Below are positions 13,023 to 59,449 of a stretch of DNA of 64,000 bases, in pieces. The notes below the pieces were generated by a model, which was not told where the DNA came from, did no database searches, and saw nothing but the letters and a program-made list of their open reading frames with translations. Position numbers and translations under genes: made by a program. Source of the stretch: an uncultured Verrucomicrobiae bacterium (GTDB taxonomy: Bacteria > Verrucomicrobiota > Verrucomicrobiia > Chthoniobacterales > JAFAMB01); assembly GCA_963762565.1 (NCBI GenBank), contig CAVXLD010000001.1, positions 736,001-800,000 of the forward strand, read 5' to 3'. Numbering within the stretch: the first letter of the stretch is position 1; each line of letters begins with the position of its first letter.

Positions 13023-13102
13023 AGCGGACGTAGTGGACTAAGTGGTTGTTTGCAGCTTGTCCACTAGGTCCACTGTGTCCACTCCGGTCCACTCCGTCCA
13101 CT
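13023..13102. repeat. Inverted short-tandem-repeat cassette (AGTGGAC / GTCCACT units)
   Basis: Three AGT/CGG(AC) units followed by five GTCCACT units, between convergent stop codons. Confidence 0.75.
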
Positions 13103-13127
13103 AACCGTGTCCCCCTTCGCCCCGGTA

Positions 13128-14633
13128 TCAGTCCGGAATCAGATGCAGCTTCTGCAGCTCTTGTTTGCTCGGCAGCTGCGAACTATCCCAACCACCACCC
13201 AGAGCTTGGACTAAAGCGACGCTCGCGATCAGGCGTTGTTCCTGGACCTGAAGCGCAGTCTCCTGATCCGTCAGGAGTGTTACCTGAGCGGTGATCACTG
13301 TCGTGTAGGCAATAGTCCCGGCTTGATACTCATTCAATGAGATCTGGACCGCCTGCTGCGCTTTCTGCACAGCATCTCGTTCTACGCCGATCTGCTGTCC
13401 CAATACCCGCAAAGCGACCAATTCATCTTCGACATTTTGGAAGGCGGCAAGAACGGTCTCTCGATAGTTAGCCACACTTTGGTCATACGCTGCCCGAGCC
13501 GCAGCGACCGCGGCGGAACGCTGCCCACCGGTGAGCACGCTTTGACTCGCACTGGCCATGAGTGTCCAAACCTCGCTCGAGGCAGAGAACAAAGCCGCGC
13601 CTGGGTTACCCGCATATCCAAATACAGCCGACAGGTCAAAGGTAGGAAAATAGGCAGCGACCTGTACTCCAATCAGCGCATTCTCTGACTTCATTTGACG
13701 TTCGGCCTCGGCAATATCCGGTCTTCGCTCAAGCAAAATCGAAGGAACACGTGTAGGCACAATCGGAACCCGCTCCGCCAATGAACCCGCCGGAATCGAC
13801 ACCTCGGCTGGCGGTTTTCCGATCAGCAGAGCAATAGCATGTTCGTCTTGGCCGCGTTGGACTCCGACATTAACCAATGCCGCTTGAGCGGCCAGAAGCT
13901 GGGCCTGAGCATTAATCACATCGGACTTCGCGGCTGTGCCCACCGCATACTGGTTTTCGGTTATCTTCAGTGAACGCTCGTAGCCGGCAACAGTATCGGC
14001 CAGCAATTGCTTAAGAGCGTCAGCGTAGCGCAACTCAAAGTAGTCGGTAGCAAGTGTGGCTTGAGCAGACAGCTTAGCTGCTGCCAATTCCGCTGCGCTT
14101 ACTTGGGCGCTCGCCACGCTGCTTTCAACGGTCCGGCGAATCTTACCCCATACGTCTGGTTCCCACGTCGCCGTGCCTTCTAAAGAATAAGAGGTAACGG
14201 CCCCGCTATTGAATCCGTTCGAGCCTCCGGATTTCTGCCGTTCAACTTGAGGTGACACGCTCACGGAAGGGAAAAAACTGGACTGCTGTTCATGCACCGT
14301 GGCCTGCGCTTCCTGATACGCGGCTTCCGCTGCCTTAACATTCTGGTTTGAGATATTAACCTGGCTTTCGAGCGCTTCGAGCGTTGGGTCCCGGTAAATC
14401 GACCACCAGGCGCCCCGGTTCATTGTGTCATTAGGCGTGGCTACTTTCCAGCCCTGGTACTCCTTATATGTGCTTGGGACGGGGGCTGAAAGGCGATGAT
14501 AATTTGGGCCGACCGAGCATGATAACATTGCAATGGAGAACGCGGCGAGGAACACCTGACGAAACGGCGAAAGGGCGAAAGGGCGAAACGGCGAAACAGC
14601 CCGTTGTGGGTAGGGATTGCGTAGATGATCCAT
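13128..14633 (-). CDS. RND efflux outer-membrane factor, NodT/OprM-type lipoprotein
   Basis: Lipobox-like MLSC followed by SVGPNY, WWSIY.DP.L, WEPDVWGKIRR, LLERRPDIAEAER, LVQALGGGW. The 5' end is interrupted by a repeat cassette (see findings). Confidence 0.93.
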   Translation of the reverse strand: MDHLRNPYPQRAVSPFRPFALSPFRQVFLAAFSIAMLSCSVGPNYHRLSAPVPSTYKEYQGWKVATPNDTMNRGAWWSIYRDPTLEALESQVNISNQNVKAAEAAYQEAQATVHEQQSSFFPSVSVSPQVERQKSGGSNGFNSGAVTSYSLEGTATWEPDVWGKIRRTVESSVASAQVSAAELAAAKLSAQATLATDYFELRYADALKQLLADTVAGYERSLKITENQYAVGTAAKSDVINAQAQLLAAQAALVNVGVQRGQDEHAIALLIGKPPAEVSIPAGSLAERVPIVPTRVPSILLERRPDIAEAERQMKSENALIGVQVAAYFPTFDLSAVFGYAGNPGAALFSASSEVWTLMASASQSVLTGGQRSAAVAAARAAYDQSVANYRETVLAAFQNVEDELVALRVLGQQIGVERDAVQKAQQAVQISLNEYQAGTIAYTTVITAQVTLLTDQETALQVQEQRLIASVALVQALGGGWDSSQLPSKQELQKLHLIPD

Positions 14634-14766
14634 CAATGTAGTCGTTTAAATTCGGAGCTCAAAATGCTCCTTCGGAGCCGATTCTGGGTTTTCAAGCCTC
14701 GTGACGACCCGAGCTGTCGCCCAAAATAATCGCCGTTTCGCCCATTCGCCCTGTCGCCGTTTCGTC
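14558..14766. mobile_element. 209-bp palindromic insert with 37-bp octamer-repeat arms (GGCGAAAC/GGCGAAAG units)
   Basis: 14558-14594 and 14730-14766 are inverted repeats with 2 mismatches in 37 bp. Mobility is inferred. Confidence 0.7.
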
Positions 14767-14776
14767 GTCTCGCCAT
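14633..14776 (-). CDS. 47-aa ORF spanning most of the insert, overlapping the mdtC stop and the OMF start by TGATG
   Basis: Manual translation MARRRNGDRANGRNGDYFGRQLGSSRGLKTQNRLRRSILSSEFKRLH*. Translation in vivo is unproven. Confidence 0.4.
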   Translation of the reverse strand: MARRRNGDRANGRNGDYFGRQLGSSRGLKTQNRLRRSILSSEFKRLH

Positions 14777-17700
14777 CACGCTAACCGCCGCCGGCTTGCC
14801 GGGTGCCTCAATTTTTCGAACCAGAGACTTAAGCGGTCGAGGTAGAGATAAATCACCGGCGTCGTATAAAGTGTCAGGATCTGGCTAATAACCAAACCAC
14901 CAATGATTGATACCCCTAAAGGCCGTCGGAGCTCCGAGCCGTAGCCGCTCGCGATCACTAGCGGAAACGCGCCCAGGATCGCAGCGAAAGTTGTCATCAT
15001 GATGGGACGAAATCGCACCAGACTCGCTTTGAAGATCGCATCGTGCGAGCTGAGAAGTTCTTCCCGTTCGGCCTGAAGCGCAAAATCAACCATCAATATT
15101 GCGTTCTTTTTAACGATCCCGATTAACAAGATCATGCCCAGCATCGCAATGATGCTGAACTCCATATTGAATAGGATCAAGGCGATCAACGCTCCTAACG
15201 TTGCTGACGGCAGCGTTGAGAGAATCGTAATCGGATGGATGTAACTCTCATAAAGAACGCCGAGAATTACATAAACTGCGGCTAACGCCGCCAGGATGAG
15301 AATCGGTTCGTCTTTAAGAGAAGACTGGAACGCGTTGGCAGTCCCAGCAAAGGTTCCGTGAATAGAGACAGGCATATGAATCTGGCCAATCGTCTCCTGA
15401 ATCGCGGCTACGGCATCGCTCAGGGAATAACCAGGGGCCAGATTGAATGAGATCGTCGACGCCACAAAAAGGCTCTGATGGTTCACTGAAAGAGGTGCAT
15501 GATCGAACTCATAATGACTAAACGCCGCCAGCAGGACCATTGGTTCTACCTCAGTCGTTACAGCAGCCCCACTGGAAGCGCTGGATTTTCCCGCTACCGC
15601 CAATGCATTCGTTGCCTGATTCACCGCCGAGCTGGTGCTGCGTGAGGTGCTGGCGCCATTGTTAGAGCTGGTAGCAGAGTTCGTCCCACTGGAGAAGGTG
15701 CCTGTTACTGCGTTAGTTGACTCGGTGCCGGCAGCAGTTTGACCCTGCGTACTAACATAGAGTTTTTTTAACGTATCAGGATCCTGCCAATACTGCGGTG
15801 CTACCTCCATAACCACGGAATACTGGTTCATGGCATTATAAATGGTAGAAACCTGGCGCTCCCCAAACGCGTCGTACAACGTGTTATCGACGGTGCTGGG
15901 AAACAATCCGAAGCGTCGCATGGTCAGCCGATCAATCTTCAAATCGGCTTGTAATCCGTTTTGTTGTTGATCGGAATTGAGATCGGTTAATTCGGGACGC
16001 TCTCTGAGCGCGGCGAGCAGCTTGGGGCCCCAGGCCAGTAGTTCACTCGTGTCATCGGCTTGCAGGGTATACTGATATTCTGACAGGCTTATCCGGCCGC
16101 CGACGCGAATATCTTGCATTGGGAAGAGAAAAAGGCGGGCGCCTGAAACCTGAACCAGTTTCGCGCGCAGGCGAGCTGCGACAATCCCAACTGAATCTCG
16201 CTCTGACAGCGATTTCAAGGTCACCCACACATTGCCAGAATTCGTTTGGCGCCCTCCGGTATTGGCCACCACACTCTCAACTGCCGGATCGTGTTGCACG
16301 ATGTCCTGAATTTGTTCCATCTTCTTCTTCATAAGCTGGAACGAAATCGCTGAGTCCGCCTGAATCCCTCCAAGCAAAGTTCCGGAATCCTGTTCCGGGA
16401 AGAAGTTTTTCGGTACGACGTTGAAGAGATAAAAATTCAGCGCGGTACTGCCGATCAGGATCAGCAGAATCAAAAACGAATGTCTTAACGACCAGCGCAA
16501 AGTTCCTTCGTAGAAACGCAACATGTGGTTGAAGCCCGCTTCGCTGACCCGGGATAACCATTTTGTCCACCCTGCTCGGCGGCTCGCCTCCGCAGCACCG
16601 GCGCGACGGGTCCTTCGCAGGAGTTTTGAACACATCATCGGTGTGGCCGTGAGTGAGAGCACGAGCGAGATCATGACGGCAACCGAAAGCGTAATGGTGA
16701 ACTCGCGAAAAAATCGACCGATAATTCCGCCCATCAAAAGGATCGGTAAAAAGACTCCGATTAGTGACAGACTGATAGAGAAAACAGTAAAGGCGACTTC
16801 CTTGGTTCCGATCAAGGCAGCCTGCAAGCGAGACCGGCCCAGTTCAATTTGCCGCGAAATATTTTCGAGAACGACTACGGCATCATCCACCACAAACCCG
16901 GTCGCTATGGTCAACGCCATCAACGAAAGATTGTTTAAGGAATAACCGAGGAGATACATGGCGGAGAACGTCCCGATAATCGAGATCGGCACCATCACGC
17001 CCGGGATTAGCATCGCCCGGAAGTCTCGCAAAAATACCAGCACAACTAAAATGACTAGCACGACCGCAACTACCAGCGTCTGCTCGGTATCCGCCAGGGA
17101 GGTGCGAATCGTCGCGGTTCGATCGCCGGTGATGATCATGTCGGTACCACCAGGCAGCGAACCCTTTAAGAAAGGCAGGATCGCTTTGATGCGGTCCACG
17201 GTCTGGATTACGTTCGCACCGGGTTGCTTATAAACAACTAACGTTACGGCGGGCTTGCCGTTGATCGAGCCGGCATAACGCAAGCTCTGCACGGAGTCGT
17301 TCACCTCCGCAATATCGGATAACAAGGTCGCCCGGCCGCTACGATAGGCCACAACCAAATCCCGATAATCCGCAGCGTGCGTCGCCTGGTCGTTCGTATA
17401 AACTTGAAACTGGTTGTCCCCGACGTCGATCGCACCTTTCGGGCTATTCGCGTTAGCAGCGGCCAAAGCCGCTCGCACATCTTCCAGCCCGATGCCGTAA
17501 TGCGAGAGCGCATTCGGGTTCAATTCTACTCTAACGGCCGGCAGTGAGCTGCCACCCACGTCGACATTTCCTACCCCTTCGATTTGGGATAATTTCTGTT
17601 GGAGTACGGTCGCTGCGGTGTCGTAAAGCTGACCGGCGGTGCGAGTGGCAGAAGTTAAAGCCACTAACAGAATAGGTGCGTCCGATGGATTATATTTTCG

Positions 17701-18087
17701 ATAGGTTGGGTTACTCCTCAAGTTCGAGGGCAAATCCGCGCGAGCTGCATTGATAGCCGCCTCCACGTCTCGAGCCGCGCCATCGATATCCCGATCAAGC
17801 GAGAACTGTAAGATAATCATTGTCTGACCCAGCGAGCTCCGAGACGTCATCTCGGTGACATCGGCAATAAAACCGAGATGGCGCTCGAGCGGCGCTGCCA
17901 CCGTAGCCGCCATCACATCCGGGCTGGCTCCCGACATGGACGCTTGGATCATCAAGGTCGGAAAATCGACCTGCGGCAGAGGCGCCACCGGTAGAAGCAG
18001 AAGAGCGAGGACTCCCGCAAAAGCGACCCCGACTGTGAGCAGGGTTGTGGCGACCGGTCGTCGAATGAAGATCTCGCTGAAGTTCAT
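14776..18087 (-). CDS. mdtC: RND multidrug efflux permease MdtC-like
   Basis: [52 protein letters not shown]. Second of a tandem RND pair. Confidence 0.9.
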   Translation of the reverse strand: MNFSEIFIRRPVATTLLTVGVAFAGVLALLLLPVAPLPQVDFPTLMIQASMSGASPDVMAATVAAPLERHLGFIADVTEMTSRSSLGQTMIILQFSLDRDIDGAARDVEAAINAARADLPSNLRSNPTYRKYNPSDAPILLVALTSATRTAGQLYDTAATVLQQKLSQIEGVGNVDVGGSSLPAVRVELNPNALSHYGIGLEDVRAALAAANANSPKGAIDVGDNQFQVYTNDQATHAADYRDLVVAYRSGRATLLSDIAEVNDSVQSLRYAGSINGKPAVTLVVYKQPGANVIQTVDRIKAILPFLKGSLPGGTDMIITGDRTATIRTSLADTEQTLVVAVVLVILVVLVFLRDFRAMLIPGVMVPISIIGTFSAMYLLGYSLNNLSLMALTIATGFVVDDAVVVLENISRQIELGRSRLQAALIGTKEVAFTVFSISLSLIGVFLPILLMGGIIGRFFREFTITLSVAVMISLVLSLTATPMMCSKLLRRTRRAGAAEASRRAGWTKWLSRVSEAGFNHMLRFYEGTLRWSLRHSFLILLILIGSTALNFYLFNVVPKNFFPEQDSGTLLGGIQADSAISFQLMKKKMEQIQDIVQHDPAVESVVANTGGRQTNSGNVWVTLKSLSERDSVGIVAARLRAKLVQVSGARLFLFPMQDIRVGGRISLSEYQYTLQADDTSELLAWGPKLLAALRERPELTDLNSDQQQNGLQADLKIDRLTMRRFGLFPSTVDNTLYDAFGERQVSTIYNAMNQYSVVMEVAPQYWQDPDTLKKLYVSTQGQTAAGTESTNAVTGTFSSGTNSATSSNNGASTSRSTSSAVNQATNALAVAGKSSASSGAAVTTEVEPMVLLAAFSHYEFDHAPLSVNHQSLFVASTISFNLAPGYSLSDAVAAIQETIGQIHMPVSIHGTFAGTANAFQSSLKDEPILILAALAAVYVILGVLYESYIHPITILSTLPSATLGALIALILFNMEFSIIAMLGMILLIGIVKKNAILMVDFALQAEREELLSSHDAIFKASLVRFRPIMMTTFAAILGAFPLVIASGYGSELRRPLGVSIIGGLVISQILTLYTTPVIYLYLDRLSLWFEKLRHPASRRRLA

Positions 18088-18388
18088 CCGCAGATTAAAA
18101 GGCAGAGTTTGTAATCCGCAGATTGACGAAACCCGGAGTTAATATCCGCAGATTTCGCAGATTACGCAGATTACGGTTTGAGGTTGTGCAGTGCGGTCGG
18201 GCAAAGAAACCTGCATTGGCGGGACGAGGGTTCTGATATTCGAGAGGCGTACCGGAGCCCCGGTAGTTCCTGCAAATGTCAAAACGCGCATCCCTCCAAT
18301 ACACCTTCCTTTGTCCTATCGTGGTCCACGACCCCAAACCGAAATCTGCGTAATCTGCGGATATTTCCATCTTCGGTGTAATCTGCGG
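18088..18388. mobile_element. 301-bp insert bounded by a perfect 10-bp IR CCGCAGATTA/TAATCTGCGG with internal CGCAGATT tandem units
   Basis: Fills the whole gap between the mdtB stop and the mdtC start. A second nested IR (ATATCCGCAGATT / AATCTGCGGATAT) lies inside. Confidence 0.7.
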
Positions 18389-21300
18389 TTACGGGTCGGT
18401 TAACTCCTCTTCGCCAGCGATACTCGATGAGATTCGACGGCCTAAACGGTCGAGTGCTAGATAGATTACCGGCGTCGTAAATAGAGTCAGGACTTGGCTC
18501 AACAGGAGACCACCGACAATAGAAATCCCTAGCGGTCGCCGAAGCTCGGATCCGGTGCCGGTTCCCAGCATCAGGGGCAACGCTCCGAATAAAGCCGCCA
18601 GCGTCGTCATCATGATTGGACGGAACCGAAGCAGACACGCTTCGTAAATTGCCTCCTGGGGCGCCTTACCATGATCGCGTTGCGCTTCTAGAGCAAAATC
18701 GACCATCATGATCGCGTTCTTCTTCACGATGCCGATTAACAATAGAATGCCGACGATTCCCATCACGTCGAGCCCGCAACCAGTGAACATCAGGGCCAGC
18801 AAAGCTCCCACCCCCGCCGAAGGCAGGGTAGACAGGATGGTAATTGGATGAATGAAGCTCTCGTAAAGAACACCTAGGATGATGTACATTGTCACGATCG
18901 CGGCGATGAGTAGAAAAATCTCGTTGTTAAGGGAAGACTCGAAGGCCGAGGTAGCCCCCCGAAAGTTTGCGATGAAGCCGTCCGGTAATTTTATCGCCTT
19001 TTGAGCCTCTCGAATTTTGCTTACGGCATCTCCTAACGACGCACCTGGTGCTAAGTTGAACGAGATAGTTGCCGCTGGGAACTGGCCTAAATGCTCAATC
19101 CGTAAGGGAGTGTGCTTCACCGAGACGGTGGAGATAGCAGATAAAGGCACCTGGCCCGCCCCGGACGTCGTGCTGGTGGAAGTAACTGAGCTAGGCACAT
19201 AAATTGAGCCAAGCGAATCCAACCCGCCTTGCAGATCAGGAGCCGCCTCAAGGATTACCCGGTACTGATTCGACTGGGTGAATATCGTGGAAGCGATTCG
19301 CTGACCGAAGGAGTCATACAACGCGTTGTCTACTGTTGCGGCAGTTACTCCAAACCGGGCGGCGCTTTTTCTATCGATAACGATATCCGCTGTCAAGCCG
19401 CTCTGTTGCAGGTCGCTGGCCAGGTCGGTAATCTCGGGAATACCTTGCAACTGGGTGATCAATTTTGGTACCCAAATGTTCAGTTGGTTTAGATCCGCAT
19501 TCTCTAGAACAAACTGATATTGGGTGGCGCTAACGGTAGTATCGGTGGTTAAATCCTGGACCGGCTGTAGGAAAAGAGTGATCCCTTCCACTCCCTGCAC
19601 TTCTTGCTCGATACGCCGGGCAATTTCTTGAGAGGTCAGGCGCCGTTCGTCATGGGGCTTTAGGCTGATCAGAAACCGCCCGTTATTTACAGTGGTGTTA
19701 GCGCCATCGACGCCCACGAACGAGGATAAGTTGACCACATCAGGATCTTTTAGAATCTCTTTTGCCAATGCGCTCTGCCGCCTGACCATGGCGGAATAAG
19801 AGGTTGACTGAGACGACTGGGTAACACCTTCGATCAATCCAGTGTCTTGGACTGGGAAAAATCCTTTCGGGACGACAATGTAAAGCCAGACGGTAAGCCC
19901 TAGCGTAGCGAACGCGACTACGAGTGTCAGACCCTGGTGACGCAGGACCAAGGTCAACATCCGTCCATACTGCCTGATCATTGTGCCGACGGTTTGCTCA
20001 CTCAACCTTTCGAATCCTCCAGTCGGCTTGTGGTGGCGCAGCATTTTGGCGCACATCATCGGCACCAGGGTTAACGATATAACCGCCGACAAAACGATGG
20101 TTACAACGGAGGTAACCGAGAATTCGTGAAAGAGACGCCCAATCACGTCGCTCATAAAGAGCAAAGGAAAATGGACTGCGATCAAAGAGATAGTAAGCGA
20201 AACAATGGTGAAACCGATCTGTTTGGAGCCTTTGAGCGCCGCTTCCAAAGGGGTGTCCCCCATCTCGATGTATCGGCTGATGTTTTCGATCACCACAATG
20301 GCGTCATCGACGACGAACCCGGTCGCAATCGTGAAAGCCATTAGTGAGAGGTTATCGAGATTAAAATGGAGCAGATACATCACCGATAACGTCCCAACCA
20401 ACGAAAGGGGGACAGATAAGCTCGGAATGATGGTGGCGCGCAGATTGCGTAGAAACAGAAAGACCACTAGCACAACCAGCGCCACGGAAAGACAGAGCTC
20501 AAACTCGACGTCCTTCACCGAGGCCCTGATCGTGACCGTCCGGTCCGTAAGCACCGAAACCTGGACTGCGGCCGGGAGCGTCGCCTCCAGCGTCGGCAAC
20601 AGCCTCTTGATGTCGTCTACGACGCTAATCACATTCGCGCTCGGTTGGCGCTGCACTTCTAAGATAATTGCCGGCGTCGTATCGACCCAGGAACCGAGCT
20701 TGGTGTTCTCGGCTGTCTCCGCAACATCCGCGACATCCCGCATCCGCACGGGCCTCCCATTCTTGTAAGCAATGATCGAGTCCATGTACTCCTGTGGGTC
20801 ATGCAACTGATCATTCGCATTGATGGTGTACGATTGAGATGGACCGTCAAAACTCCCCTTTGGTGTGTTGACGTTTAGATTGCTGATGGTGGTGCGGAGA
20901 TCGTCAATGTTCAGGCCGTAGGCAGCCAATGCTTGCAACTTCGCTTGAATTCGTACTGAAGGCCTGTGACCGGTACTAACTTGAACTAAGCCGACCCCTG
21001 GGATTTGCGACATTTTCTGAGCGAGCCGGGTGTCGGCCATATCCGCCACCTCAGGCAGCGGCAAAGTCTTCGAGGTCAGCGCTAGAGTCAGCACCGGAGC
21101 ATCCGCGGGATTTACTTTGGCGTAGATAGGAGGAGCCGGTAAATCAGACGGAAGGAGATTGTTGGCTGCGTTGATAGCGGCCTGCACTTCTTGCTCAGCG
21201 ATATCGAGATTTAAGCTGAGACTAAACCTTAGGGTTATGATCGATGCTCCCACAGAACTCGAAGACGACATTTCCTCCAGGCTGGGCATCTGTCCTAACT

Positions 21301-21508
21301 GCCTTTCGAGTGGCGCTGTGACCGAAGTGGTCATCACCTCTGCGCTGGCGCCAGGATAAAACGTCTGAATCTGAATGGTCGGGTAGTCGACTTCCGGGAG
21401 AGCGGAAATAGGAAGGAAACTGTAAGCGACCAGTCCCGCGAGCAGGATCGCGACCATCAGCAGCGAGGTCGCAACCGGCCGGAGTATGAACAAACGGGAA
21501 GGATTCAT
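18389..21508 (-). CDS. mdtB: RND multidrug efflux permease MdtB-like
   Basis: [47 protein letters not shown]. Confidence 0.92.
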
Positions 21509-21525
21509 CTAGTCGGGAGTCATCC

Positions 21526-21787
21526 ACAACCGCGAATACACACGAATGGACACGAATAAAAGACTCTAACCGCGGATGAACGCAGATTGACGCAGATGAG
21601 ACATGCCGAACAGGTTCTTCATTCGAAAAACGTGGCAACACCAGGACATCTTCTCTCAACTATCGAAAGACGCTGCGGATCCTCTTTCTCAACCACCGCT
21701 AGTGTGCGGGTATTCTATCTGTGTCAATCTGCGTTCATTGTGGTTGCCGGCCTTTGTTCGCATGCATTCGCGTCAATTCGTGGTTGT
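21526..21787. mobile_element. Two nested decamer-repeat palindromic cassettes (CACGAAT-type outer, CGCAGAT-type inner)
   Basis: Outer arms ACAACCGCGAATACACACGAATGGACACGAAT / TTCGCATGCATTCGCGTCAATTCGTGGTTGT. Inner arms 21568-21597 / 21717-21745. Confidence 0.7.
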
Positions 21788-23125
21788 TTCCGTTGGTCGT
21801 TTTCGTTGCTCGTTGCTGCCGCCGTTTCCGTTCCAATTCCGATGATGTTCTCTTGGTGATCCACCTGGCCGGTCCGGCGGTTGATGTGGTCTGCCTGCCG
21901 GGTCATCTAGGGGAGGCTTGCCGGGGAGTTGCACTTTCGCCCCGTCGTACAATCGGTCGACACCGTCAGTAATTACGGTTTCTCCTAACTCGAGCCCGGA
22001 TAGGATGGCGGTTCGCTGGGCATCGGCCGGTCCGGTCTTGACCACCCGAATCGAGACAGTGGAATTGGGATTCACTACATATACATAAGAGCCCGGTGCT
22101 CCTAACTGGATAGCAGCCGTCGGAACCACGATTGCATCCTTAAGTGTATCGACCAGAAGTCGCGCGTTAACGAATTGTTGAGGGAAAAGTTCCTCTTTGT
22201 CATTCGGAAACATCGCTCTCAGTTTTACCGTTCCCGTTGACGTATCTACCTGATTGTCAGTTGTGGCTAGCGTACCACTGGTGATTTCAGTTGTGTCGGA
22301 CCGGTCATACGCCGTTACCGCTAAGGTAGCGCCGCTACGAAGGCGCTTGATCACTTGCGAGATCTTATCTTCCGGGATGGTGAAGATAACTGACATCGGC
22401 TGCATTTGGGTAATAACCACAATGCCGTTAGTGTCACTGGTCTGCACATAATTACCTTCGTCGACTTGGCGGATCCCAACGAGGCCGTCAACCGGTGACT
22501 CAATGTGGCAGTAAACCAGGTTGACCTTGGCCGTATCGATTTGTGCCTGATCGACGAGAACGTTCCCTTCATCTTGCTTCACGGTGGCTTGCTGAGTGTC
22601 CACCTGCTGAAACGCGATTGAATCCTGGGCCGCAAGCTTCTGATACCGAGCCAGATCTAATTTTGCGTCCGCTAACAGCGCCTGATCTCGAACGAGTTGG
22701 CCCTGATATTGTTCAAGCTGCGCCTGGTAGATACGCGGATCGATCTGGGCCAGAAAATCACCCTTCCTAACCAGTTGTCCTTCCTTAAACGCAATCTGAG
22801 TTAGTTGCCCATTGATCTGCGTCTTCACTGTGACGGTGGCCAGCGGAGTCACTGTCCCCAGCCCTTCGAAGATGATGGGGATGTCGCCCTTTTCCGCGAC
22901 CGCGATCCCAACCGGCATCACCGAGTTCATAAAGGCGTGCCGGCCAAATTGGGCCGGCTGTTGCTGCTGACCCAGACGCGGCCGAATAACCCAGAACCAC
23001 AATGCCCCCAAGCCCAGCAAAATCAGGGCGAACACCAGAAGCCGTGCTCTAACCTTCGGTTTCCGAGGTGGCGGCGATGGCGGGGAAGGCTTTAATTGAG
23101 TTGGCTGGGTTATCTGCGTGCTCAT
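21773..23125 (-). CDS. mdtA: RND periplasmic adaptor MdtA-like
   Basis: N-terminal TM, GLGTVTPLATVTVKTQINGQL, LAQIDPR, IESPVDGLVGIRQVDEGN, DNQVDTSTGTVKLRA. Confidence 0.92.
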   Translation of the reverse strand: MSTQITQPTQLKPSPPSPPPRKPKVRARLLVFALILLGLGALWFWVIRPRLGQQQQPAQFGRHAFMNSVMPVGIAVAEKGDIPIIFEGLGTVTPLATVTVKTQINGQLTQIAFKEGQLVRKGDFLAQIDPRIYQAQLEQYQGQLVRDQALLADAKLDLARYQKLAAQDSIAFQQVDTQQATVKQDEGNVLVDQAQIDTAKVNLVYCHIESPVDGLVGIRQVDEGNYVQTSDTNGIVVITQMQPMSVIFTIPEDKISQVIKRLRSGATLAVTAYDRSDTTEITSGTLATTDNQVDTSTGTVKLRAMFPNDKEELFPQQFVNARLLVDTLKDAIVVPTAAIQLGAPGSYVYVVNPNSTVSIRVVKTGPADAQRTAILSGLELGETVITDGVDRLYDGAKVQLPGKPPLDDPAGRPHQPPDRPGGSPREHHRNWNGNGGSNEQRKRPTETTTN

Positions 23126-23326
23126 CCTCGTCTGGCGCTCGAATCGCGGCCGCTCAAAACCTGTTCGTTAATTGCCCATTTTACAGCAATTTCAAAGCGA
23201 TTTTCCCGAAACAAGCCTTGGAGAAACCAGTCACATCGATGACGTGAAAGCCCTCGGTAGGACACGACTTTACGATAAACGGTACGATCATAGGGATAAA
23301 AGGCCGGGAATCTGGTAGGGCGAGGC

Positions 23327-23793
23327 TCAGCTTCGCCCTAGATCCTCCGCGAGTGACGCATAGCCCTCCGCCTTCAGCTTCTCTACTTGCTTCTGGTCAG
23401 AGGACTGACGCAGAACGGCAGGACTGAGAGCGGTATTTTCGGAGCTCTTAGCGGTTATCATCGACCAACGGCCGGAAGCGACGTCGATCAACGCGGCACG
23501 CACATTGATCCGCATCCGCTGGGTTTGGTCAGGTATAAGACTCCCGGCGATTCGCCCCGATCGTTATCTCCCGGCGGTAGTCCGGAAAATCCCTGGACCC
23601 GATAGCCGAGATGGTTCAAAGCGTCAACCATAGCACCATCCGGCGCGATTGCTCCAGACTGGATCACCAGCAGTCGGAAATTGAACGGGTCTCGCAGCCC
23701 GTTAGAAACAATACCGGCGTCACGATGACCGCGACGACTCGTAAAGAGGGCTTCTTCATCGGCAGTTAGATGTAATATTAGAAGCTCAGTCAA
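23327..23793 (-). pseudogene. Probable remnant of a hypothetical protein gene split over two frames
   Basis: Two overlapping ORFs with protein-like segments (LLVIQSGAIAPDGAMV...FSGLP; MRINVRAALIDVASGRWS...SDQKQVEKLK). No clear start. Family not securely identified. Confidence 0.4.
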
Positions 23794-23815
23794 AGACCAA
23801 GCTCTAAAAGGGAGA

Positions 23816-24037
23816 AGTTCAGGAGTTCAAGGAGTCGCAGGAGTTCAGGAACCTGCTCGCTAACAACCTACCAGCAACCTTGGAGACAGTTGGTTTGCGG
23901 GAACCTTTTATTCTCGTAATTTTCTGTTTCGCGCAGCCTGAACTCCTGAACTCCTGAACTCCTGAACTCCTGAACTCCTGAACTCCTGAACTCCTGAACT
24001 CCTGAACTCCTGAACTCCTTGAACTCCTTGAACTCCT
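23816..24037. repeat. Inverted octamer cassette: AGTTCAGG arm and (CCTGAACT)10(CCTTGAACT)2 arm
   Basis: Left arm 23816-23850. Perfect 8-mer array 23937-24016 followed by two 9-mer variants. A single arm of the same family is at 59198-59222. Confidence 0.9.
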
Positions 24038-24777: not shown

Positions 24778-25387
24778 ATGCTTTCGCAAAGGGACCTGAG
24801 CTTTTATCCCTTCTATCATTCGCAACGCCGGTACGCTCGCCGAGCCGGACCCTGCGTGTGAAATCGTAGTCGTCCTCGTTCTCGTCCTCGATAGTGGCGT
24901 GGCACGTCGATGCGACACGCGATTGCCCAGCGCCTGGAGGGGAGCCGCTTAGGCGCGAACCTTTCCACCCTCGCGAATTTCGTCTCAACACTAGTCCGGC
25001 CGAAACGTGCAAAAACAGGCGGCTCCCGGGAATGACCCAGCGGTTCGCAGCTTTACGGCCGGGTGTAAACGATTCGGAGCCGCAGATAAAATCATTGCAT
25101 TGGGCTAATCCCGGGAGCCGCCTGTTGCGACATTTTTTAGTCGGATTGAGCGCTGAGACAACTATCGCGGGTCCGTCTGCTACGCGCCAAAGCGGCTCCC
25201 CTCCAGGCGCTGGGCAATCGCGTGTCGCATCGACGCGCCACGCCACATCGAGGACGAGGGGCCACATAATGATTTCACACGCTGGGTCCGGCTCGGCGCA
25301 TGCATCGGTGTTGCAACCCGATAGAACCCAATAAATCGACAGTCTTCGCGAACCCGTTCAGGCCTTTCGGGAGCCTCGCCCCACCAA
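24748..25387. repeat. Five-layer nested inverted-repeat complex
   Basis: Concentric arm pairs 24748-24778/25357-25387, 24822-24865/25271-25314, 24870-24892/25247-25259 and 24894-24935/25205-25246, around core 24936-25204. Confidence 0.85.
24936..25204. mobile_element. GGAGGGGAGCCGC REPIN/MITE-like element, copy A (long subfamily)
   Basis: GGAGGGGAGCCGCTT..AGGCGGCTCCCGGGA..TCCCGGGAGCCGCCT..AAGCGGCTCCCCTCC. Five copies in the window. Confidence 0.8.
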
Positions 25388-25430
25388 GCTGCTAGGCCGA
25401 AAACGCTACGCGCCGATACGCCGACACGCT

Positions 25431-26777: not shown

Positions 26778-26840
26778 GGACTAGGCTTTCCCAACAAGGG
26801 CGCAAAGATCACAGAGGTTTTGGAAAAAGGAAGGAAATTG

Positions 26841-27514: not shown

Positions 27515-27539
27515 ACTCACAATATGGCATCTACCCCAG

Positions 27540-29909: not shown

Positions 29910-30095
29910 TTGCAGTTTTGGATTCATGAGTATCAACTGGTTGAGACTAAGAAGGGTGAAACCTTTATCGTCGTAAACGGCAAAGATATCGAGACGTCCC
30001 GGGAATGGTTAACCAAGTTAATTGGCGATCAGCTTGGCCGGCAGAAGGTCCTAATCCCCGAACAATTTAGCTGGCTGAGTCGATTGCTTCGATGA
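29910..30095 (+). CDS. Small hypothetical protein (61 aa)
   Basis: Strong AAGGAGAGG RBS before the TTG start and protein-like composition. Confidence 0.5.
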   Translation: MQFWIHEYQLVETKKGETFIVVNGKDIETSREWLTKLIGDQLGRQKVLIPEQFSWLSRLLR

Positions 30096-30352
30096 GGAGC
30101 TAGGAGCTAGAATCCAGGAGTCAGGAGGATTCTTGGGACTGCCGCACGCTGAGACAAAAGTATGCCAGGGCCATGAGACGTGATTGGTGATTTGTGATTA
30201 GTGATTGGTGCGAGACACCGATCCTGGCGGAGGCCCCGCCAATCACCAATCACCTTTCACCAATCACCAATCACCTTTCACGCTCCCCGGACTAACCACG
30301 CCTCCACACATGCCACACCCCACGCCCTCCTGGCTCCTAGCGCCTGTTCCTT
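30096..30352. repeat. Nested heptamer cassettes: GGAGCTA-type outer, GTGATTG/CCAATCA inner
   Basis: Outer 30096-30128 / 30326-30352 (degenerate). Inner 30180-30210 / 30239-30281. Confidence 0.75.
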
Positions 30353-30386: not shown

Positions 30387-31124
30387 ATGACGGCTAGCAT
30401 CGCTGCTCCGATCGGAGCCGACTTGGGTTTGGACCAGCCAGTAGCTAGAAATCGAGCGCGCGTCAGACGGACTAGTGCGACGAAGCAAAAGCGAGCGAAA
30501 ACGGGATCAAGAAGCGGCACCCGAGAACGGGCTACTCCCCGCACGTCCGAAATTCTTCGCCGATTATTAGAGGACGACTCACGCGGCTCGCTTACGATCG
30601 AAGAAATAGTCCCCGGTTGTCGTTCGGCAACCCAAAACTAGCTCTTTCGCGGTTTGTTGATGGCCCCGGCAATCCCGCATTCGGCGGCCAACCTCTTTAG
30701 TGAACGGGGACCACGGTCGCTACCGGCCTCTTTGATGATATTTACCATTCCGGGGGGGGTACCCATTCCGCTCCCCGTACTTTCCACAGCGGTGGTCATT
30801 CCTACCGAGATCATTTCCTACCAAATGTTTCAGGGTAAGGAAGAAATCAGTTTACCGAGGTGTATACTGGATCGGTCAGTCCCGCGATCAGCATTTAGCG
30901 CTTGCGTAACCACGATTCTGCCTTTCTTGGAAAAGGCGGAAGGAAAAGTCCGGCCGCGCTGGCGCTGGGCGTCCAGTCGAGCCGCGACAATCTACTTTCA
31001 TACGGCGGCCTTGTTTTCCGTCGCGATGACAACTCTCGGCACCATCTTCTGCTATTCGCGCGCATCCAGCCTCTTAAAAGAATCGACCCCGGAATCCGAT
31101 GTCATTCCGGAGCCGACGAATTGA
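30387..31124 (+). pseudogene. ExoD-family (exopolysaccharide synthesis) pseudogene
   Basis: RTSEILRRLLE...LTIEEIV, then SLMIFTIP..PIPLP.LST...ISYQM...LPRCILDRSV...LPFLEKAE..VRPRW in the same frame. In-frame TAG at 30639 inside about 100 bp of extra sequence. The C-terminal TM region is degraded. Confidence 0.7.
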
Positions 31125-31134
31125 AAAGCACAGA

Positions 31135-31164
31135 CGCCCTCGCAAGCGAGGCAGCGCTCCAAGA
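31135..31164. repeat. Single REP-like arm (TGGAGCGCTGCCTCGCTTGCGAGG family)
   Basis: Reverse complement matches the arm at about 51765-51790. Confidence 0.6.
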
Positions 31165-31225
31165 TTCCCGAAACATCCACAGACCCGCTGGCAATCTGCG
31201 GATGTCTACCAAGCGGAGTTTGGGT

Positions 31226-31414
31226 TTAGCTCTGACCGCCGCCCTGGTCACCGGTGTTGAACGCTTGGGCATGCCCCTCTTTTACGACATACACTCGTTC
31301 CACGGTGCCGCCGAAGGTGCCGACGGGGATTCGGATCAGTTTGAAGCCCTCGATTTCATGGTTCGAGTCAATTGCGGTTGAGTACCTACCTAGATCGATT
31401 AGTTCTTGGTTCAT
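31226..31414 (-). CDS. Small hypothetical protein divergent from the LysR regulator
   Basis: 62-aa ORF MNQELIDLGRY... Position is typical of a LysR target. No family recognised. Confidence 0.4.
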   Translation of the reverse strand: MNQELIDLGRYSTAIDSNHEIEGFKLIRIPVGTFGGTVERVYVVKEGHAQAFNTGDQGGGQS

Positions 31415-32792: not shown

Positions 32793-32976
32793 AGGGCGAC
32801 GGTAGAGATTTCGGGTAGAAGCGGCAACGCGATTCGCAGGAGGATAGCTGCCTAGGTTTGGATGAGTATAAATAGGTGTTTGGATGACGGGCATCAATGA
32901 TCAAGGACGACCTCAATAATAATATATCATTTTACTTGCATGTTATTACAACTGATATATAGTGTGTTTTAATAAT

Positions 32977-37636: not shown

Positions 37637-38077
37637 GTGTCCGAGCGTTTTCTGATCGTCGACGGCCATAGTATTATTTTTGCCTGGCCGGAGTTGCTTG
37701 CGTTGCATCAACGCAATACGGCGGGAGCGCGCGACAGCTTAGTGAGGACGTTGACCGCTTATCAGGACGTATCAGGGACTCACGTGGTGGTAGTTTTTGA
37801 TGGTAAAGGCGCCATGGTTAACAAAATCGAGGAACCGGGCGGAATTCAGATCTTTTATTCGAACGCCGGTCGTACAGCCGATGAGATCGTCGAGCGTTTG
37901 GTCGCTAAGTACGGCAAAAAGTTTTCGATGACGGTAGCAACGGCCGATTTGCTAGAGCAGCAAACGGTGACCTCTTTCGGAGCTCAACCAATTGGATCTG
38001 AGGGACTACGTCGAATGATTCAGGATGCTCAAGTGGAGTTCGCAGCGGAGCTGAAGCGGCGACGACGCAGGAGCTAG
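37637..38077 (+). CDS. NYN-domain protein (YacP/Rae1-like)
   Basis: LIVDGHSII, VVVVFDG, TADEIVERL, VATAD..EQ. Confidence 0.88.
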   Translation: MSERFLIVDGHSIIFAWPELLALHQRNTAGARDSLVRTLTAYQDVSGTHVVVVFDGKGAMVNKIEEPGGIQIFYSNAGRTADEIVERLVAKYGKKFSMTVATADLLEQQTVTSFGAQPIGSEGLRRMIQDAQVEFAAELKRRRRRS

Positions 38078-38424
38078 GAGCTAGAATCTAGGAGCTAGGA
38101 GAGGAGCCGCTGGGCGTAGGAAAGCGCTGGGCAGGGGCGGCGCGACCGGCGCCGCGAACGGATGGGACCTATACGACATATACGACCTATAGGACATATA
38201 GGACTTATATGACGCGGGAGACATATAGGTCCTATGGTCCGATAAGCCTGTCGCGCCGTAGGCTTGGCGAAGGCGGATCCTATCCGTGCCACTCTTCGCT
38301 GCGGCTGTCGCCAAAGTGACCGCCAACACACCTGAACGCCCCAAATCGAGGACGAGAACGAGAACGATTCCTGCCGCGGTAGCCTCGTCTAGCTCCTAGA
38401 TTCTAGCTCCTAGCTCCTAGCTCC
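38070..38424. repeat. GGAGCTA heptamer cassette enclosing several other repeat families
   Basis: Arms 38070-38100 / 38388-38424. Inside are GACCTATAG-type nonamers (38165-38260), CCTGTCGCGCCGTAGGCTTGGCGAAGGCGG, and GAGGACGAGAACGAGAACGA. Confidence 0.85.
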
Positions 38425-38426
38425 TT

Positions 38427-45114: not shown

Positions 45115-45261
45115 CAGGGGAGACGGGGCCTGCGTAAAGAAAAAATTGAAAAAGCGTCCGGGGAGCGGCTAGGGCGAAAATCTCGGCGCTTCAGGGCTTC
45201 GTTCTCGTCCTCGTCCTCGAATGGTGTGAAGCGGTGATGCGATGTGCGATTCCCAGCGCCT

Positions 45262-45528
45262 GGAGGGGAGCCGCTTTGGAGCGTATCTTTCCGCCCCGGC
45301 GAATTTAGTCTCAACACTTATCCGACCGAAACGGGCAAAAACAGGCGGCTCCCGGGAACGGCCCAGCGGTTCACAGCTCTAAGCCGGGGCAAACGAATCG
45401 GAGCCACGGGGTAAATCATCACCCTGGGTTATTCCCGGGAGCCGCTAGTTGCGACATTTTTTGGTCCGATTGAGTGCTGAAACAAATATCGCGAGGTCGC
45501 ATGCTACGCGCAAAAGCGGCTCCCCTCC
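45262..45528. mobile_element. GGAGGGGAGCCGC element, copy B (long subfamily)
   Basis: Colinear with copy A, including the flanks out to the TCGTCCTCG hexamers (about 45199-45590). Confidence 0.8.
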
Positions 45529-45693
45529 AGGCGTTGGGAACAAAATGCCTGGGCGACGTGCCACGCCTTTCGAGGACGAGGACGAAAACGCTCGTCGCGG
45601 AAGCGTTTGCCCCTATCGGAATCCCAAGATAGCAAATGAGAAACACGTCGTAGGGCTGGACAGGTACGCCTCTATTGATAAACTGCGGTGCAT

Positions 45694-47000: not shown

Positions 47001-47016
47001 AGTTTTTGCGTTTTCG

Positions 47017-47487: not shown

Positions 47488-47531
47488 CCTGCGTAGCCGG
47501 AAATGCGTACGCATTTCCGGCTACGCAGGCT
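47486..47531. repeat. Perfect 46-bp palindrome between convergent genes (possible bidirectional terminator / collapsed REP doublet)
   Basis: AGCCTGCGTAGCCGGAAATGCGT|ACGCATTTCCGGCTACGCAGGCT. Confidence 0.85.
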
Positions 47532-47533
47532 GG

Positions 47534-49498: not shown

Positions 49499-49668
49499 GC
49501 GCCGCAAAAAAAAGAAGTCCGGACCGGTTTATGTTTTGGGAGCGGAAATTGTTCGGATATAATAATGAGCCGGTGAGAGTAACTGAATGACCCACTGCCT
49601 TCCAGTGAATTTCGCACAACGCAAGATCAAGCGGGCCATCGGAGAAGGTATCAGCAAAGGAGTAGCCT

Positions 49669-50718: not shown

Positions 50719-50730
50719 GCAAGCCCTCCG

Positions 50731-50818
50731 GAAATGACAGATGACAGAATAACAAATGACAGATTCCGCGTCAGGGGAAAACCTCATTTGTCATTTGGCA
50801 TCTGTAATTTGTCATTTC
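50731..50818. repeat. Inverted heptamer cassette (ATGACAA/ATGACAG vs TTGTCAT)
   Basis: About four heptamers per arm around a short spacer. Same family at 53325-53405. Confidence 0.85.
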
Positions 50819-50855
50819 TATGGGCTTGGGATATTGAATCCGCTACCATCGTAAA

Positions 50856-51746: not shown

Positions 51747-52226
51747 GTAGGGGTGGCCACCCGTGGAGCGTTGCCTCGCTTGCGAGGCCGTTCTCGCCGT
51801 CGCCCTCGACAGGCGGGTGGCGCGTCAATGCAATGCTCGACTACCCAGCGCCTGGAGGGGAGCCGCTTTGGCGTTCATCTCTCCGCCCTCGCGAATTTCG
51901 TCGCAACCCTCATCCGGCCGAAACTCGCAAAAACAGGCGGCTCCCGGGAACGACCGAGCGGTTCGTAGCTCTACGGCCGGGTGTAAACGAGTTGAGCCAA
52001 GGGCAAATCATCGCGCTGGATTATTCGCGGGAGCCGCGTGTTGCGACATTTCGTGGTCGGATGAAGCACTGAAACAAATATTGCGAGGTCGTCTGTTACG
52101 CACCAAAGCGGCTCCCCTCCATGCGTTGGGAACAAACATACGTTGTCAACGGGCCACGCTTTTCGAGGACGAGAACGGCCCCGCAAGCGAGGCAGCGGTA
52201 CACGGGTCGCGACCCTTCGCCCTACC
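51747..52226. repeat. Outer REP doublet enclosing copy C
   Basis: GTAGGG..ACCCGTGGAGCGTTGCCTCGCTTGCGAGGCCGTTCTCG pairs with CGAGAACGGCCCCGCAAGCGAGGCAGCGGTACACGGGT..CCCTAC. Confidence 0.75.
51854..52120. mobile_element. GGAGGGGAGCCGC element, copy C (long subfamily)
   Basis: Colinear with copies A and B. Confidence 0.8.
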
Positions 52227-52229
52227 AAC

Positions 52230-53276: not shown

Positions 53277-53324
53277 CAGACTGAATACCTCACACTTACT
53301 GCCAGGAGCCCTAGAGACCATCAG

Positions 53325-53405
53325 AATGACAAATGACAAATGACAGATGACAAATAGCCGGTCCCGGCCACATATTTGTCATGTGTCATTTGTCATCTGT
53401 CATTT
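53325..53405. repeat. Inverted heptamer cassette (ATGACAA family)
   Basis: AATGACAAATGACAAATGACAGATGACAAAT / ATTTGTCATGTGTCATTTGTCATCTGTCATT. Confidence 0.85.
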
Positions 53406-53416
53406 CTCATCCACTC

Positions 53417-54619: not shown

Positions 54620-54625
54620 AGCCTT

Positions 54626-54737
54626 GGACTCGCCTGAAGCTCGCCCAGGAATAGCCAATAGCCAATAGCCAAAAGGTAGCTTCAATCGGCTATTGGCTAT
54701 CGGCTATTGACGATGCGGACGAGCCTGAGGCGAGTCC
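54626..54737. repeat. Nested palindrome: GGACTCGCCT outer arms, AATAGCC heptamer inner arms
   Basis: The hairpin leaves only 6 nt to the hppA stop and 6 nt to the glgA start. Confidence 0.8.
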
Positions 54738-54743
54738 GCTGGT

Positions 54744-56825: not shown

Positions 56826-56989
56826 AGGGGTAGGTATAAGGGAACAACAGATGCGCAGGGTGCGACATTTTTGCAACCTGAACTAATAGTCGAGAACAAC
56901 TTTTTAGAGAGAAGTTCGGTTTTTTGTTGAAAGCCTATCAACTTTGGCTGTCCGTCGGGGAGGTTATGGGCGGGGAGGGAGAGGAGTTT

Positions 56990-57883: not shown

Positions 57884-57896
57884 AACCGGGTTGAAC

Positions 57897-59174
57897 TCAG
57901 CCGATGGAAGAAAGCAATGAGCGCAGCGTCAATTGAATGATCTCCAGCGCTTGTTGAACTTGTTCCTTATCGACAATCAGCGGAGGCAACAGACGGATTA
58001 CCCTCGGCCCGGCAGGAATCGTCAAAAGGCCATTTTCCATCAGTCTATTGACCACGATCTGGGACGGCAGACGTTTCCCATCCTTTAAGCTCTCAAAGCG
58101 GGCATCGAGCTCCATGCCGATCAGCAATCCTTTGCCCCGAACCGCGCTGACGCCCGGGATCGCAGCAAGCTCGCTGGTAATAAAGGCTCCCAGAGAAGCA
58201 CTTTTTTCTACGAGACCGTTGCTGAGTATCGTATCCAACACGGCCAAAGAAACCGAACAGGCCAGCGGCGTACCGCCATAGGTGGTGGCATGATTTCCCG
58301 GCTGCAAGACGTCGCACAGCATCCCCTCTGATCCGTCTTCGCGAGCAAATGATTTTTCTCGGAACCAGGAAGCGCCCAGAGGAAAACCTCCGCCGATCGC
58401 CTTTGCCCAGCTGACCGCATCGGGAACAACTTCTGGGGCGACCGTTTTCCAGGCACACCAGTTACCGGTTCTCCCCAGGCCGCACTGAATCTCATCAAAC
58501 ATCAACAACAGACCACGCTCATCACAAAGGCGCCGCAACCCCGTCAGAAACTCCGGTGTGGTTGGGTTGATTCCGCCTTCTCCTTGGATTGGCTCAACCA
58601 GGACGGCAACAGTTTGCTCAGAGATTCCGCGCTCTACCGCAGCCAAGTCATTGAAAGGCAAATGCCGGAAACCAGGCAACAGCGGTGCAAATCCAACCTT
58701 GACCTTCTCCTGACCGGTTGCGGAAATGCCGGCCATGGTCCGGCCATGGAACGACTGTTCAAAGGTGATGATTTCAAAACGCGCCGCGGCTGATCTCCGT
58801 TTTTCGTCGTTTCCGTACTTTCTGGCCAGCTTGATTAGCGCTTCATTTGCCTCGGCCCCACTATTTGAAAAGAACACCTTTCCAGGGCTACCCACGATCT
58901 CGACCAGGCGTTTCGCCAATTCCCCTTGAGGTCTAGTGAAATAGAGGTTCGACGTATGAATCAATCGCCGACTTTGCCGGCTGAGCGCCTCTACTATTGC
59001 GGGGTGTCCGTGCCCAAGAACTGACACAGCGATTCCGGCACCAAAATCTAGGTAACATTTCCCGCGCTCGTCCCAAACCCGTACCCCTTCACCACGTTCT
59101 AACACCAAGTCATATCGGCCGTAGGTAGGGGCGACATAGTCGGCGAACAATTGTTTGGTTTCTGGGTGGCTCAT
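57897..59174 (-). CDS. argD: Acetylornithine aminotransferase
   Basis: NSGAEANE, SFHGRT, EPIQGEGG, DEIQCGLGRTG, AKAIGGG. Lies within the arg cluster. Confidence 0.93.
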   Translation of the reverse strand: MSHPETKQLFADYVAPTYGRYDLVLERGEGVRVWDERGKCYLDFGAGIAVSVLGHGHPAIVEALSRQSRRLIHTSNLYFTRPQGELAKRLVEIVGSPGKVFFSNSGAEANEALIKLARKYGNDEKRRSAAARFEIITFEQSFHGRTMAGISATGQEKVKVGFAPLLPGFRHLPFNDLAAVERGISEQTVAVLVEPIQGEGGINPTTPEFLTGLRRLCDERGLLLMFDEIQCGLGRTGNWCAWKTVAPEVVPDAVSWAKAIGGGFPLGASWFREKSFAREDGSEGMLCDVLQPGNHATTYGGTPLACSVSLAVLDTILSNGLVEKSASLGAFITSELAAIPGVSAVRGKGLLIGMELDARFESLKDGKRLPSQIVVNRLMENGLLTIPAGPRVIRLLPPLIVDKEQVQQALEIIQLTLRSLLSSIG

Positions 59175-59197
59175 GGAAAAAGGGGGAGGATAAGCTC

Positions 59198-59449
59198 GGG
59201 AGTTCAGGAGTTCAAGGAGTTCGGTAGGGCGAAAACCTCGGCGCGCCTTTGACGCCGCCACTTCACATCGATTGAACGCGCCGGGTTTGAGCCGCGCCGT
59301 GCGGCGATCATGCCCAATGTCAACAAAGTCCGCGCCTTGGTTCGGTTCTGGTCCATGAGTATCGGCTGCGCTGGATCGCGGCTCAAACCCGGCGCGGCCA
59401 GACTATAGAGTAAACGGCACCCTCGACGCGCCGAGGTTTTCGCCCTACC
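59198..59449. repeat. GGTAGGGCGAAAA REP doublet (59223-59449) with an inner IR, plus a GAGTTCA arm (59198-59222)
   Basis: GGTAGGGCGAAAACCTCGGCGCG / CGCGCCGAGGTTTTCGCCCTACC. Inner CGCGCCGGGTTTGAGCCGCG / CGCGGCTCAAACCCGGCGCG. Confidence 0.85.

Follow-up and report, generated by a model that had tools for sequence, protein, structure and literature searches.

Repeat-armed hairpins at gene junctions of a Verrucomicrobiae genome: candidate gene-less copies of one-gene cassettes

Short tandem units located next to stop and start codons are a familiar feature of cyanobacterial genomes, where they are called short tandemly repeated repetitive (STRR) sequences, and are similar to the repeats described here. 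We analysed a stretch of 64,000 nucleotides (nt) from an uncultured Verrucomicrobiae bacterium (assembly GCA_963762565.1, contig 1, positions 736001-800000; the window), in which many gene junctions are occupied by cassettes, i.e. hairpins whose arms consist of short tandem units that face each other in mirror image across a variable spacer. A described gene-bearing counterpart is the 23S intervening sequence of Coxiella, which, in the accessible part of the published account, has an S23p four-helix open reading frame (ORF) in its stem, contains tandem GACAGAT heptamers and is excised by RNase III (PMC4990558). The genome (G000; 6.1 Mb, 54% G+C, 15 contigs, assembly completeness 93.7%) was compared with congeners (G002-G005) and a member of another genus (G016), and the sequencing runs containing the window are mostly soil metagenomes.

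The mirror-image hairpins at gene junctions are a real, shared architecture, as confirmed genome-wide. The arms, as captured by 19 family patterns, form 611 inward-facing pairs at 593 loci vs 14 outward-facing pairs, in agreement with the fixed inverted polarity proposed in the initial annotation; a twentieth pattern (GTGAAC7; 139 inward vs 108 outward) was discarded as noise. De novo detection of periodic 5-mer arrays that precede their own reverse complement yielded 113 paired loci in contig 1 vs 0 after block shuffling of triplets, and eight window cassettes folded as DNA reached z values of -2.9 to -10.4 relative to mononucleotide shuffles. Arms mostly contain three 9-nt units in families associated with GxxExxY genes and three to five shorter units of 6-8 nt in families associated with four-helix genes. 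Only 2 of 591 classified loci fall within called genes, and 317 of 589 start at most 30 nt from a stop codon. Flanking genes, the orientation of which was taken from a purpose-built gene caller with unreliable start calls, are tandem or convergent at 487 and divergent at 102 of these 589 loci, i.e. the divergent share is 17%, equal to that among junctions in general (17%) and lower than that among long junctions (24%), a depletion that is mild at most.

Within the window all units named previously were recovered at, or a few bases from, the positions given for them, and, as described, no two of the four sites in the resistance-nodulation-division (RND) operon carry the same family. The window had been described as free of transposases, and none of the 46 ORFs scanned belongs to a transposase family; moreover, the window gives no match in Rfam at gathering score. 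A left arm with an inverted right arm is present at most sites, the exceptions being lone left arms at 8968 and 59198, which have no partner within 600 nt. Similarly, most cassettes are placed at gene junctions, except that one arm at 14558 is read within the predicted lipoprotein signal peptide of an outer-membrane gene and that the right outer arm at 21526 extends into the final codons of the membrane-fusion gene. The TCGTCC/TCGTTC palindromes have hexamer arms, whereas their cores (24870, 45199, 51790) are a separate, RAYT-associated repeat.

A gene-bearing (filled) form exists for 11 of 11 named unit families, nine of them enclosing a four-helix-bundle gene (TIGR02436, 23S-IVS/Avd-like) and two a GxxExxY gene. 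The tie of such arms to these two gene types, which the initial annotation had suggested, is therefore true for all families, and its view of the gene-less copies as non-autonomous derivatives is supported, ORF-enclosing copies existing in every one of them. In G000 itself, CGCAGATT and CACGAAT are filled with GxxExxY genes, GTGATTG, AATAGCC and TCGTCC with four-helix genes, and GTGGAC with a four-helix-suffix type, for which both arms are seen in congeners. Filled forms of GGCGA, GGAGTTCA, GGAGCTA and GACnTAT occur in congeners only, and those of ATGACA were found at 5 of 11 GTDB loci with arms at that spacing. Congeners also contain four-helix arm families beyond those first named, with the units GGGAACGCC, CGGTT and TTGCGAG (L146, L149, L043, L138, L064, L157). 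Profile searches of G000 gave 8 matches to PF05635 and 14 to PF13366 at about 12 loci, and among the matches listed both arms are present at 7 of 8 four-helix and 9 of 9 GxxExxY loci. An automatic arm test was passed by 26 of 40 class-wide four-helix genes (40 high-scoring ones out of 247 matches) vs 39 of 899 short control genes of G000, and by 55 of 66 metagenome four-helix loci with enough flank. Each family has one or two filled vs dozens of gene-less copies. One GxxExxY cassette is clearly truncated (C10:371505), and a search of 585 gene-less copies for protein remnants gave a single weak match.

The arm unit matches the protein clade. About 15 four-helix clades exist within one genus, and when the labels of 15 units are mapped onto a tree built from 38 proteins, 14 changes are required, which is the minimum, as compared to a shuffled mean of 29.1. 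The proteins are under purifying selection, the ratio of nonsynonymous to synonymous substitution rates (dN/dS) being 0.05-0.10 in six of nine pairs, with the remaining three saturated. In the GxxExxY proteins (TIGR04256) residues E29, D69, K81 and Q93 are invariant in 24 of 24 sequences, and the predicted model (predicted local distance difference test, pLDDT, 91) has a PD-(D/E)XK fold that best matches a restriction-endonuclease-like protein and the Cas4-type protein SSO0001 (E < 0.001, modest TM-scores of 0.44-0.48). The four-helix protein has relatives 2RLD and 2GSC in the PDB and matches the Avd model weakly, i.e. below the cut-off; to our knowledge, no catalytic activity of any sort is known for the four-helix families.

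The cassettes turn over. Among the 14 named window junctions for which relatives have the corresponding region, compared by eye, 12 differ in at least one relative, which has another family, a nested layer gained or lost, or nothing, and one is empty in G016. At the RND junction the insert comprises 301 nt bounded by inverted CCGCAGATT, and G016 has the start codon directly after the stop codon. At the junction following a gene judged by eye to be glucose-6-phosphate dehydrogenase-like, G000, G003 and G005 have a four-helix cassette with GTGATTG arms, and in G002 and G004 the place is taken by a TCAGTAA cassette belonging to a different four-helix clade. Empty sites, ORF-containing versions and inverted pairing, on the absence of which the initial annotation would have been abandoned, are thus all present. 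Gene-less copies move as units: spacers with unrelated flanks are 100% identical over 118 nt, 97% identical over 207 nt or, in a five-member set, 86-91% identical, and the similarity of spacers shared by unrelated sites stops at the arms. As to target duplications, direct repeats of at least 6 nt are found in 49 of 603 own flanks vs 60 when cross-paired, so that there is no excess at these 603 loci, shorter duplications being invisible by this method. Extended stems in the flanks show a small excess (46 vs 14), which nesting can explain. In close strains arm units are gained or lost (10 nt fewer at 13077 and about 9 nt more near 14575) and contigs often break at cassettes; no clean skip of a cassette was present among the joints listed for contigs of four DNA runs (window 8500-23800). 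A much expanded version of the same layout is found in G016 (L037), where CACAGATT arms are stacked over about 1 kb at a junction, with multiple left blocks opposite multiple right ones.

Many genes of the cassettes (cargo genes) share an upstream box. An AACAT-N9-ATGTT-type motif derived from 61 cargo upstream regions precedes 10 of 19 cargo genes of G000, which belong to the training set, and 6 of 12 Y1 genes, which do not, as compared to 8 of 599 random genes, and is present in only 1 of 562 gene-less copies. The 91 top sites include pairs at comEC, comM and recQ and single sites at a pilC-containing operon and rpsF-ssb, as well as sites at unrelated genes. The palindromic box is seen before recQ within the window (two copies at 32926-32971, plus strand; C1:768926, 768950) and before comEC, comM, a pilin-like operon and rpsF-ssb (G000 C10:399260, C1:903756, C1:421150, C10:65076). 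As many cargo genes have the box in common with comEC, comM, ssb and recQ, an action on single-stranded DNA is likely, and from the shared sites we infer that the cassettes may be tied to DNA uptake. RAYT genes have the same box, however, and it may thus only mark elements that exploit uptake. The box is not the DdaA motif, which reads CGWCA-N5-TGWCG in the accessible text of PMC12392091.

Based on these findings we consider it somewhat likelier to be right than wrong that the hairpins are gene-less copies of one-gene cassettes, each with a unit-specific protein clade, and represent a widespread kind of selfish element that is copied and integrates in the form of single-stranded DNA folded into a hairpin, which that protein recognises. 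The protein would bind its own tandem units, i.e. three 9-nt units in the case of the nuclease and three to five 6-8-nt units in the case of a ring-forming four-helix protein, and the cut might be made by GxxExxY in its own families and by a host or helper enzyme in the four-helix families. Via the shared promoter box, expression may be coupled to DNA uptake, when single-stranded DNA and recombination are available. Insertion would occur without long duplication, often into older hairpins, and would then be filtered by reading-frame tolerance.

Several observations weigh against this reading. The empty site stems from another genus, which is too distant to fix exact ends or short duplications, and only 135 of 492 spacers match another one over 60% of their length, 13 of them at 90% identity or more; near-identical spacers being this few, recent copying is rare. 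Furthermore, the G000 assembly contains no filled copy for GGCGA, ATGACA, GGAGCTA, GGAGTTCA and GACnTAT. As GGCGA nevertheless has a pair with a 100% identical spacer, its cognate protein is absent, lies in an unassembled part or is not an absolute requirement. Many rows of the protein tree are orthologues, so that the agreement of unit and clade is matching rather than independent co-evolution. Neither recA nor dprA has the box upstream, and it is lacking before 9 of 19 cargo genes and present before unrelated genes. Finally, the metagenome query, which also served for the intragenic cassettes described below, was built from three intragenic proteins, and the intragenic rate is thus biased.

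More tentatively, and at somewhat below an even chance, the cassettes might represent a separate mobile-element class without transposase, in which a four-helix ring or a minimal GxxExxY nuclease reads the periodic arm on single-stranded DNA during uptake and drives insertion. With its translation-neutral arms and overprintable cassette such a class would also explain 23S intervening sequences and the heptamer repeats found in many bacteria.

The crowding at gene junctions is likely a survivor bias. In 79 cases, from five 7-nt families, the arm provides the stop codon of the neighbouring gene, mostly at offsets 7 nt apart (4, 11, 18 or 8, 15, 22), which makes a stop available in all three frames. 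An insertion would persist where it terminates the frame upstream of it, where it lies within the loop of an older hairpin or where the host frame stays open. The last situation is found in 11 cassettes located within DNA-methyltransferase-type genes of other genomes, where the host frame runs open through the cassette. Three of these, from the class-wide set, have three different units and three insertion points; two of their hosts match PglX models below the cut-off, and the third was assigned by motif, by eye. All 3 intragenic cassettes leave the host frame open over their whole length, whereas an open alternative frame is present in 0 of the 37 others. Among 80 metagenome loci the same frame is open in 11 and the other frame in none, 8 being long host frames and 3 short chance frames; of the long hosts five were scanned, four of which match methyltransferase or DUF1156 families and one nothing. 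The overprinted cassettes (L098, L100, L112, L208, L211, L215, L222, L224, L233, L236, L243) are of the four-helix type, their hosts being PglX/Eco57I-like, N6/N4 methylase or DUF1156 genes; they always use the same relative frame and add about 150-200 residues, and the host genes carry further peptide repeats coded by arms. Overprinting in DNA methyltransferase genes constitutes a dual-coding arrangement missed by gene callers.

These data also bear on the role of RNA. According to the initial annotation, insertion is nearly neutral because of the RNA hairpin. This is not supported, as G-U on the mRNA strand is not in excess among stem mismatches (379 vs 352; 126 vs 106 loci), 102 of 589 loci lie between divergent genes and the intragenic host frames are open. 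Neutrality is better explained by reading-frame effects, as 7-nt arms give a stop in any of three frames. More generally, an RNA route, in which RNase III cuts the hairpin from transcripts and an Avd-like four-helix protein hands it to a reverse transcriptase for re-insertion, seems unlikely to us. It would account for the protein family and the gene-in-stem layout, which are those of the Coxiella intervening sequence, with RNase III excision reported in the accessible part of PMC4990558, for the GACAGAT heptamer in 67 of 67 ATGACA cassettes, for the weak Avd-model match and for the prevalence of tandem or convergent flanking genes, and the genome encodes one intact reverse transcriptase and two that are partial or broken. 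These, however, resemble group II intron enzymes, as judged by eye, and none of the three loci lies beside a filled cassette, although no search for template repeats was made. Moreover, an open host frame is needed for translation through the insert, not for precise removal from RNA, the mRNA strand shows no G-U excess, and the GxxExxY families have the same layout but a DNase-type fold.

The cassettes could also belong to a domesticated host system resembling Ssn/NTS, the proteins of which mark or cut hairpin-bearing single-stranded DNA at uptake and thus tune recombination, the spread of repeats being a by-product. We regard this as rather improbable. The box in common with uptake genes, the low dN/dS, the few filled relative to dozens of gene-less copies per family and a layout like NTS-ssnA-NTS, as far as described in the accessible text of PMC11893778, are consistent with such a role; filled cassettes, however, are gained, lost and swapped among congeners and also occur within methyltransferase genes, the large number of four-helix clades in one genus fits selfish diversification, and RAYT genes have the box as well, which may therefore mark uptake exploiters only. 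Finally, locally expanded, host-kept regulatory repeats (terminator, translation or quadruplex signals) without an element behind them, as proposed for similar heptamers in the accessible parts of PMC4679880 and PMC4692102 and compatible with the position of 317 of 589 loci close to a stop codon and with the variable unit number in close strains, are highly improbable, being largely refuted by filled forms in every family, spacers common to unrelated sites, family swaps at a single junction and arms that pair with their own partner no better than with other members (284 of 578).

Along the window, the first arm is a solitary GGAGCTA left arm (8967-8999). Immediately upstream (8540-8940) aminotransferase-like coding continues past a GntR-aminotransferase ORF, which, by eye, suggests a frameshift or partial duplication. 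The gene-less GTGGAC cassette at 13020-13103 has filled forms (L153, L154) enclosing a four-helix-suffix gene, and G002 has a GTGATTG cassette after the same stop. In the GGCGAAA cassette (14558-14766) one arm is in frame in the lipoprotein signal peptide mentioned above (minus strand); counterparts in G002 and G004 are also translated in the signal peptide, the cassette is missing from G016, the signal peptide of which is plain, and four-helix filled forms occur in G002-G005. A two-layered CGCAGATT cassette (18088-18388) exactly fills the RND stop-to-start gap and has GxxExxY filled forms at C1:643983 and C11:64902. The CACGAAT cassette (21526-21783; GxxExxY filled form C1:1445043) contains a CGCAGAT cassette (about 21568-21745) in its loop, and this inner element is missing from G002 and G005. 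At 23814-24037 the right arm of a GGAGTTCA cassette has grown to about 12 units (four-helix filled forms L045, L050, L067). A short AT-richer stretch with two small ORFs lies ahead of it (23327-23793); neither G002 nor G005 has this stretch, and a close strain has other sequence in part of its place. The TCGTCC hexamer arms at 24870-25260 surround a RAYT-type palindrome core (GGAGGGGAGCCGC), whereas G003 and G005 have hexamer arms that lack this core. A GGAGCTA cassette beginning at a stop codon (30095-30345) holds a GTGATTG cassette (30174-30281) in its loop; the corresponding site is occupied by a RAYT-type core in G002 and by a GGCGA cassette in G005. Nearby (30654-31414) an ExoD-family gene is split into two frames.

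Further downstream, a GGAGCTA cassette (38069-38425), the arm of which forms the stop of an NYN gene, encloses a GACCTATAG cassette (about 38165-38240) together with a single unpaired hexamer arm; filled forms are of the four-helix (L044) and four-helix-suffix type (L152, L156). Hexamer arms with RAYT-type core at 45199-45585 correspond to ATGACA in G002 and to GGAGCTA with nested GTGGAC in G005. The ATGACA(G/A) cassette at 50731-50817 includes the GACAGAT heptamer, as in the Coxiella 23S intervening sequence, and decayed hexamer arms with RAYT-type core (51790-52175) are matched by a near-empty 66-nt gap in G002. A second ATGACA cassette (53323-53411; TIGR02436 filled forms at 5 of 11 GTDB loci) is missing from G004 and replaced by other arms in G016, and the AATAGCC cassette (54648-54712; four-helix filled form C1:1345410) is missing from G016. 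At 59198-59449 a GGAGTTCA left arm (59198-59222) has lost its partner to a GTAGGGCGA RAYT-type palindrome; G002-G005 have the complete cassette, and a Y1 gene with these palindromic repeats is located at C10:17375.

The RAYT-type palindromes form two families. The first (24935-25205, 45250-45540, 51844-52130, 61731-61945, 63100-63320), with its core motif occurring 389 times in the genome, nests in repeat-armed cassettes and flanks a short Y1 gene (G000 C1:579877). The second (GTAGGGCGA / GGAGCCTCGCCC; 23318-23340, 59223-59449, 61645-61700) has its own short Y1-like gene, the one at C10:17375.

Taken together, the cassettes join three long-standing puzzles, i.e. what four-helix-bundle (S23p) proteins do, what GxxExxY proteins do and where intergenic heptamer repeats come from. 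For every clade the substrate can be predicted, namely its own arm unit, which makes binding and cleavage accessible to direct tests, and a family of small proteins that bind or cut single strands in a unit-specific manner could serve as tools. In G000, about 600 copies reshape gene ends, operon junctions and one signal peptide. We found no published description of dispersed repeat-armed four-helix or GxxExxY cassettes in a literature search that covered few subscription papers and no supplements.

Among known systems, the heptamer repeats of Xanthomonas and Nostoc (PMC4692102) and the TAACTGA repeats of Beggiatoa (PMC4679880) likewise consist of short tandem units near stop or start codons, with about four units preferred, and Xanthomonas also has inverted heptamer pairs (PMC4692102). 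Unlike here, the accessible text of both surveys names no enclosed gene family or mobile parent. Miniature inverted-repeat transposable elements derived from insertion sequences have a transposase parent between the same ends; here, the filled forms carry four-helix or GxxExxY genes instead. Avd of diversity-generating retroelements, as presented in the accessible part of PMC10053308, has a homologous four-helix fold, the score here being below the Avd cut-off. The Ssn/NTS/SRM system (accessible text of PMC11893778) resembles our cassettes in that hairpin repeats enclose a small nuclease gene, that numerous copies lack the gene and that there is a link to natural transformation, but Ssn is a GIY-YIG enzyme, whereas the proteins described here are predicted PD-(D/E)XK or four-helix proteins and the arms are periodic.

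REPIN/RAYT elements, as far as described in the accessible text of PMC3116915, are also extragenic inverted doublets with variable spacer, numerous copies of which lack a gene, whereas a gene between such repeats is rare. Our cassettes also contain nested palindromes of the true RAYT type, and the RAYT genes have the same promoter box. Here, however, the arms are tandem direct units rather than palindromes of the repetitive extragenic palindromic (REP) type and the enclosed gene is not an HUH enzyme; an HUH Y1 gene flanked by the same repeat is found only for the GGAGGGGAGCCGC and GTAGGGCGA cores, not for short-unit arms. The 23S gene of G000 is a single copy of 2851 nt that covers the entire model and contains no insert. 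Like our cassettes, 23S rRNA intervening sequences contain a four-helix-bundle ORF between terminal inverted repeats, and their GACAGAT is identical to the ATGACA-family unit, whereas the cassettes described here occupy protein-gene junctions and gene interiors, are accompanied by hundreds of gene-less copies, comprise many unit families and carry GxxExxY as a second cargo.

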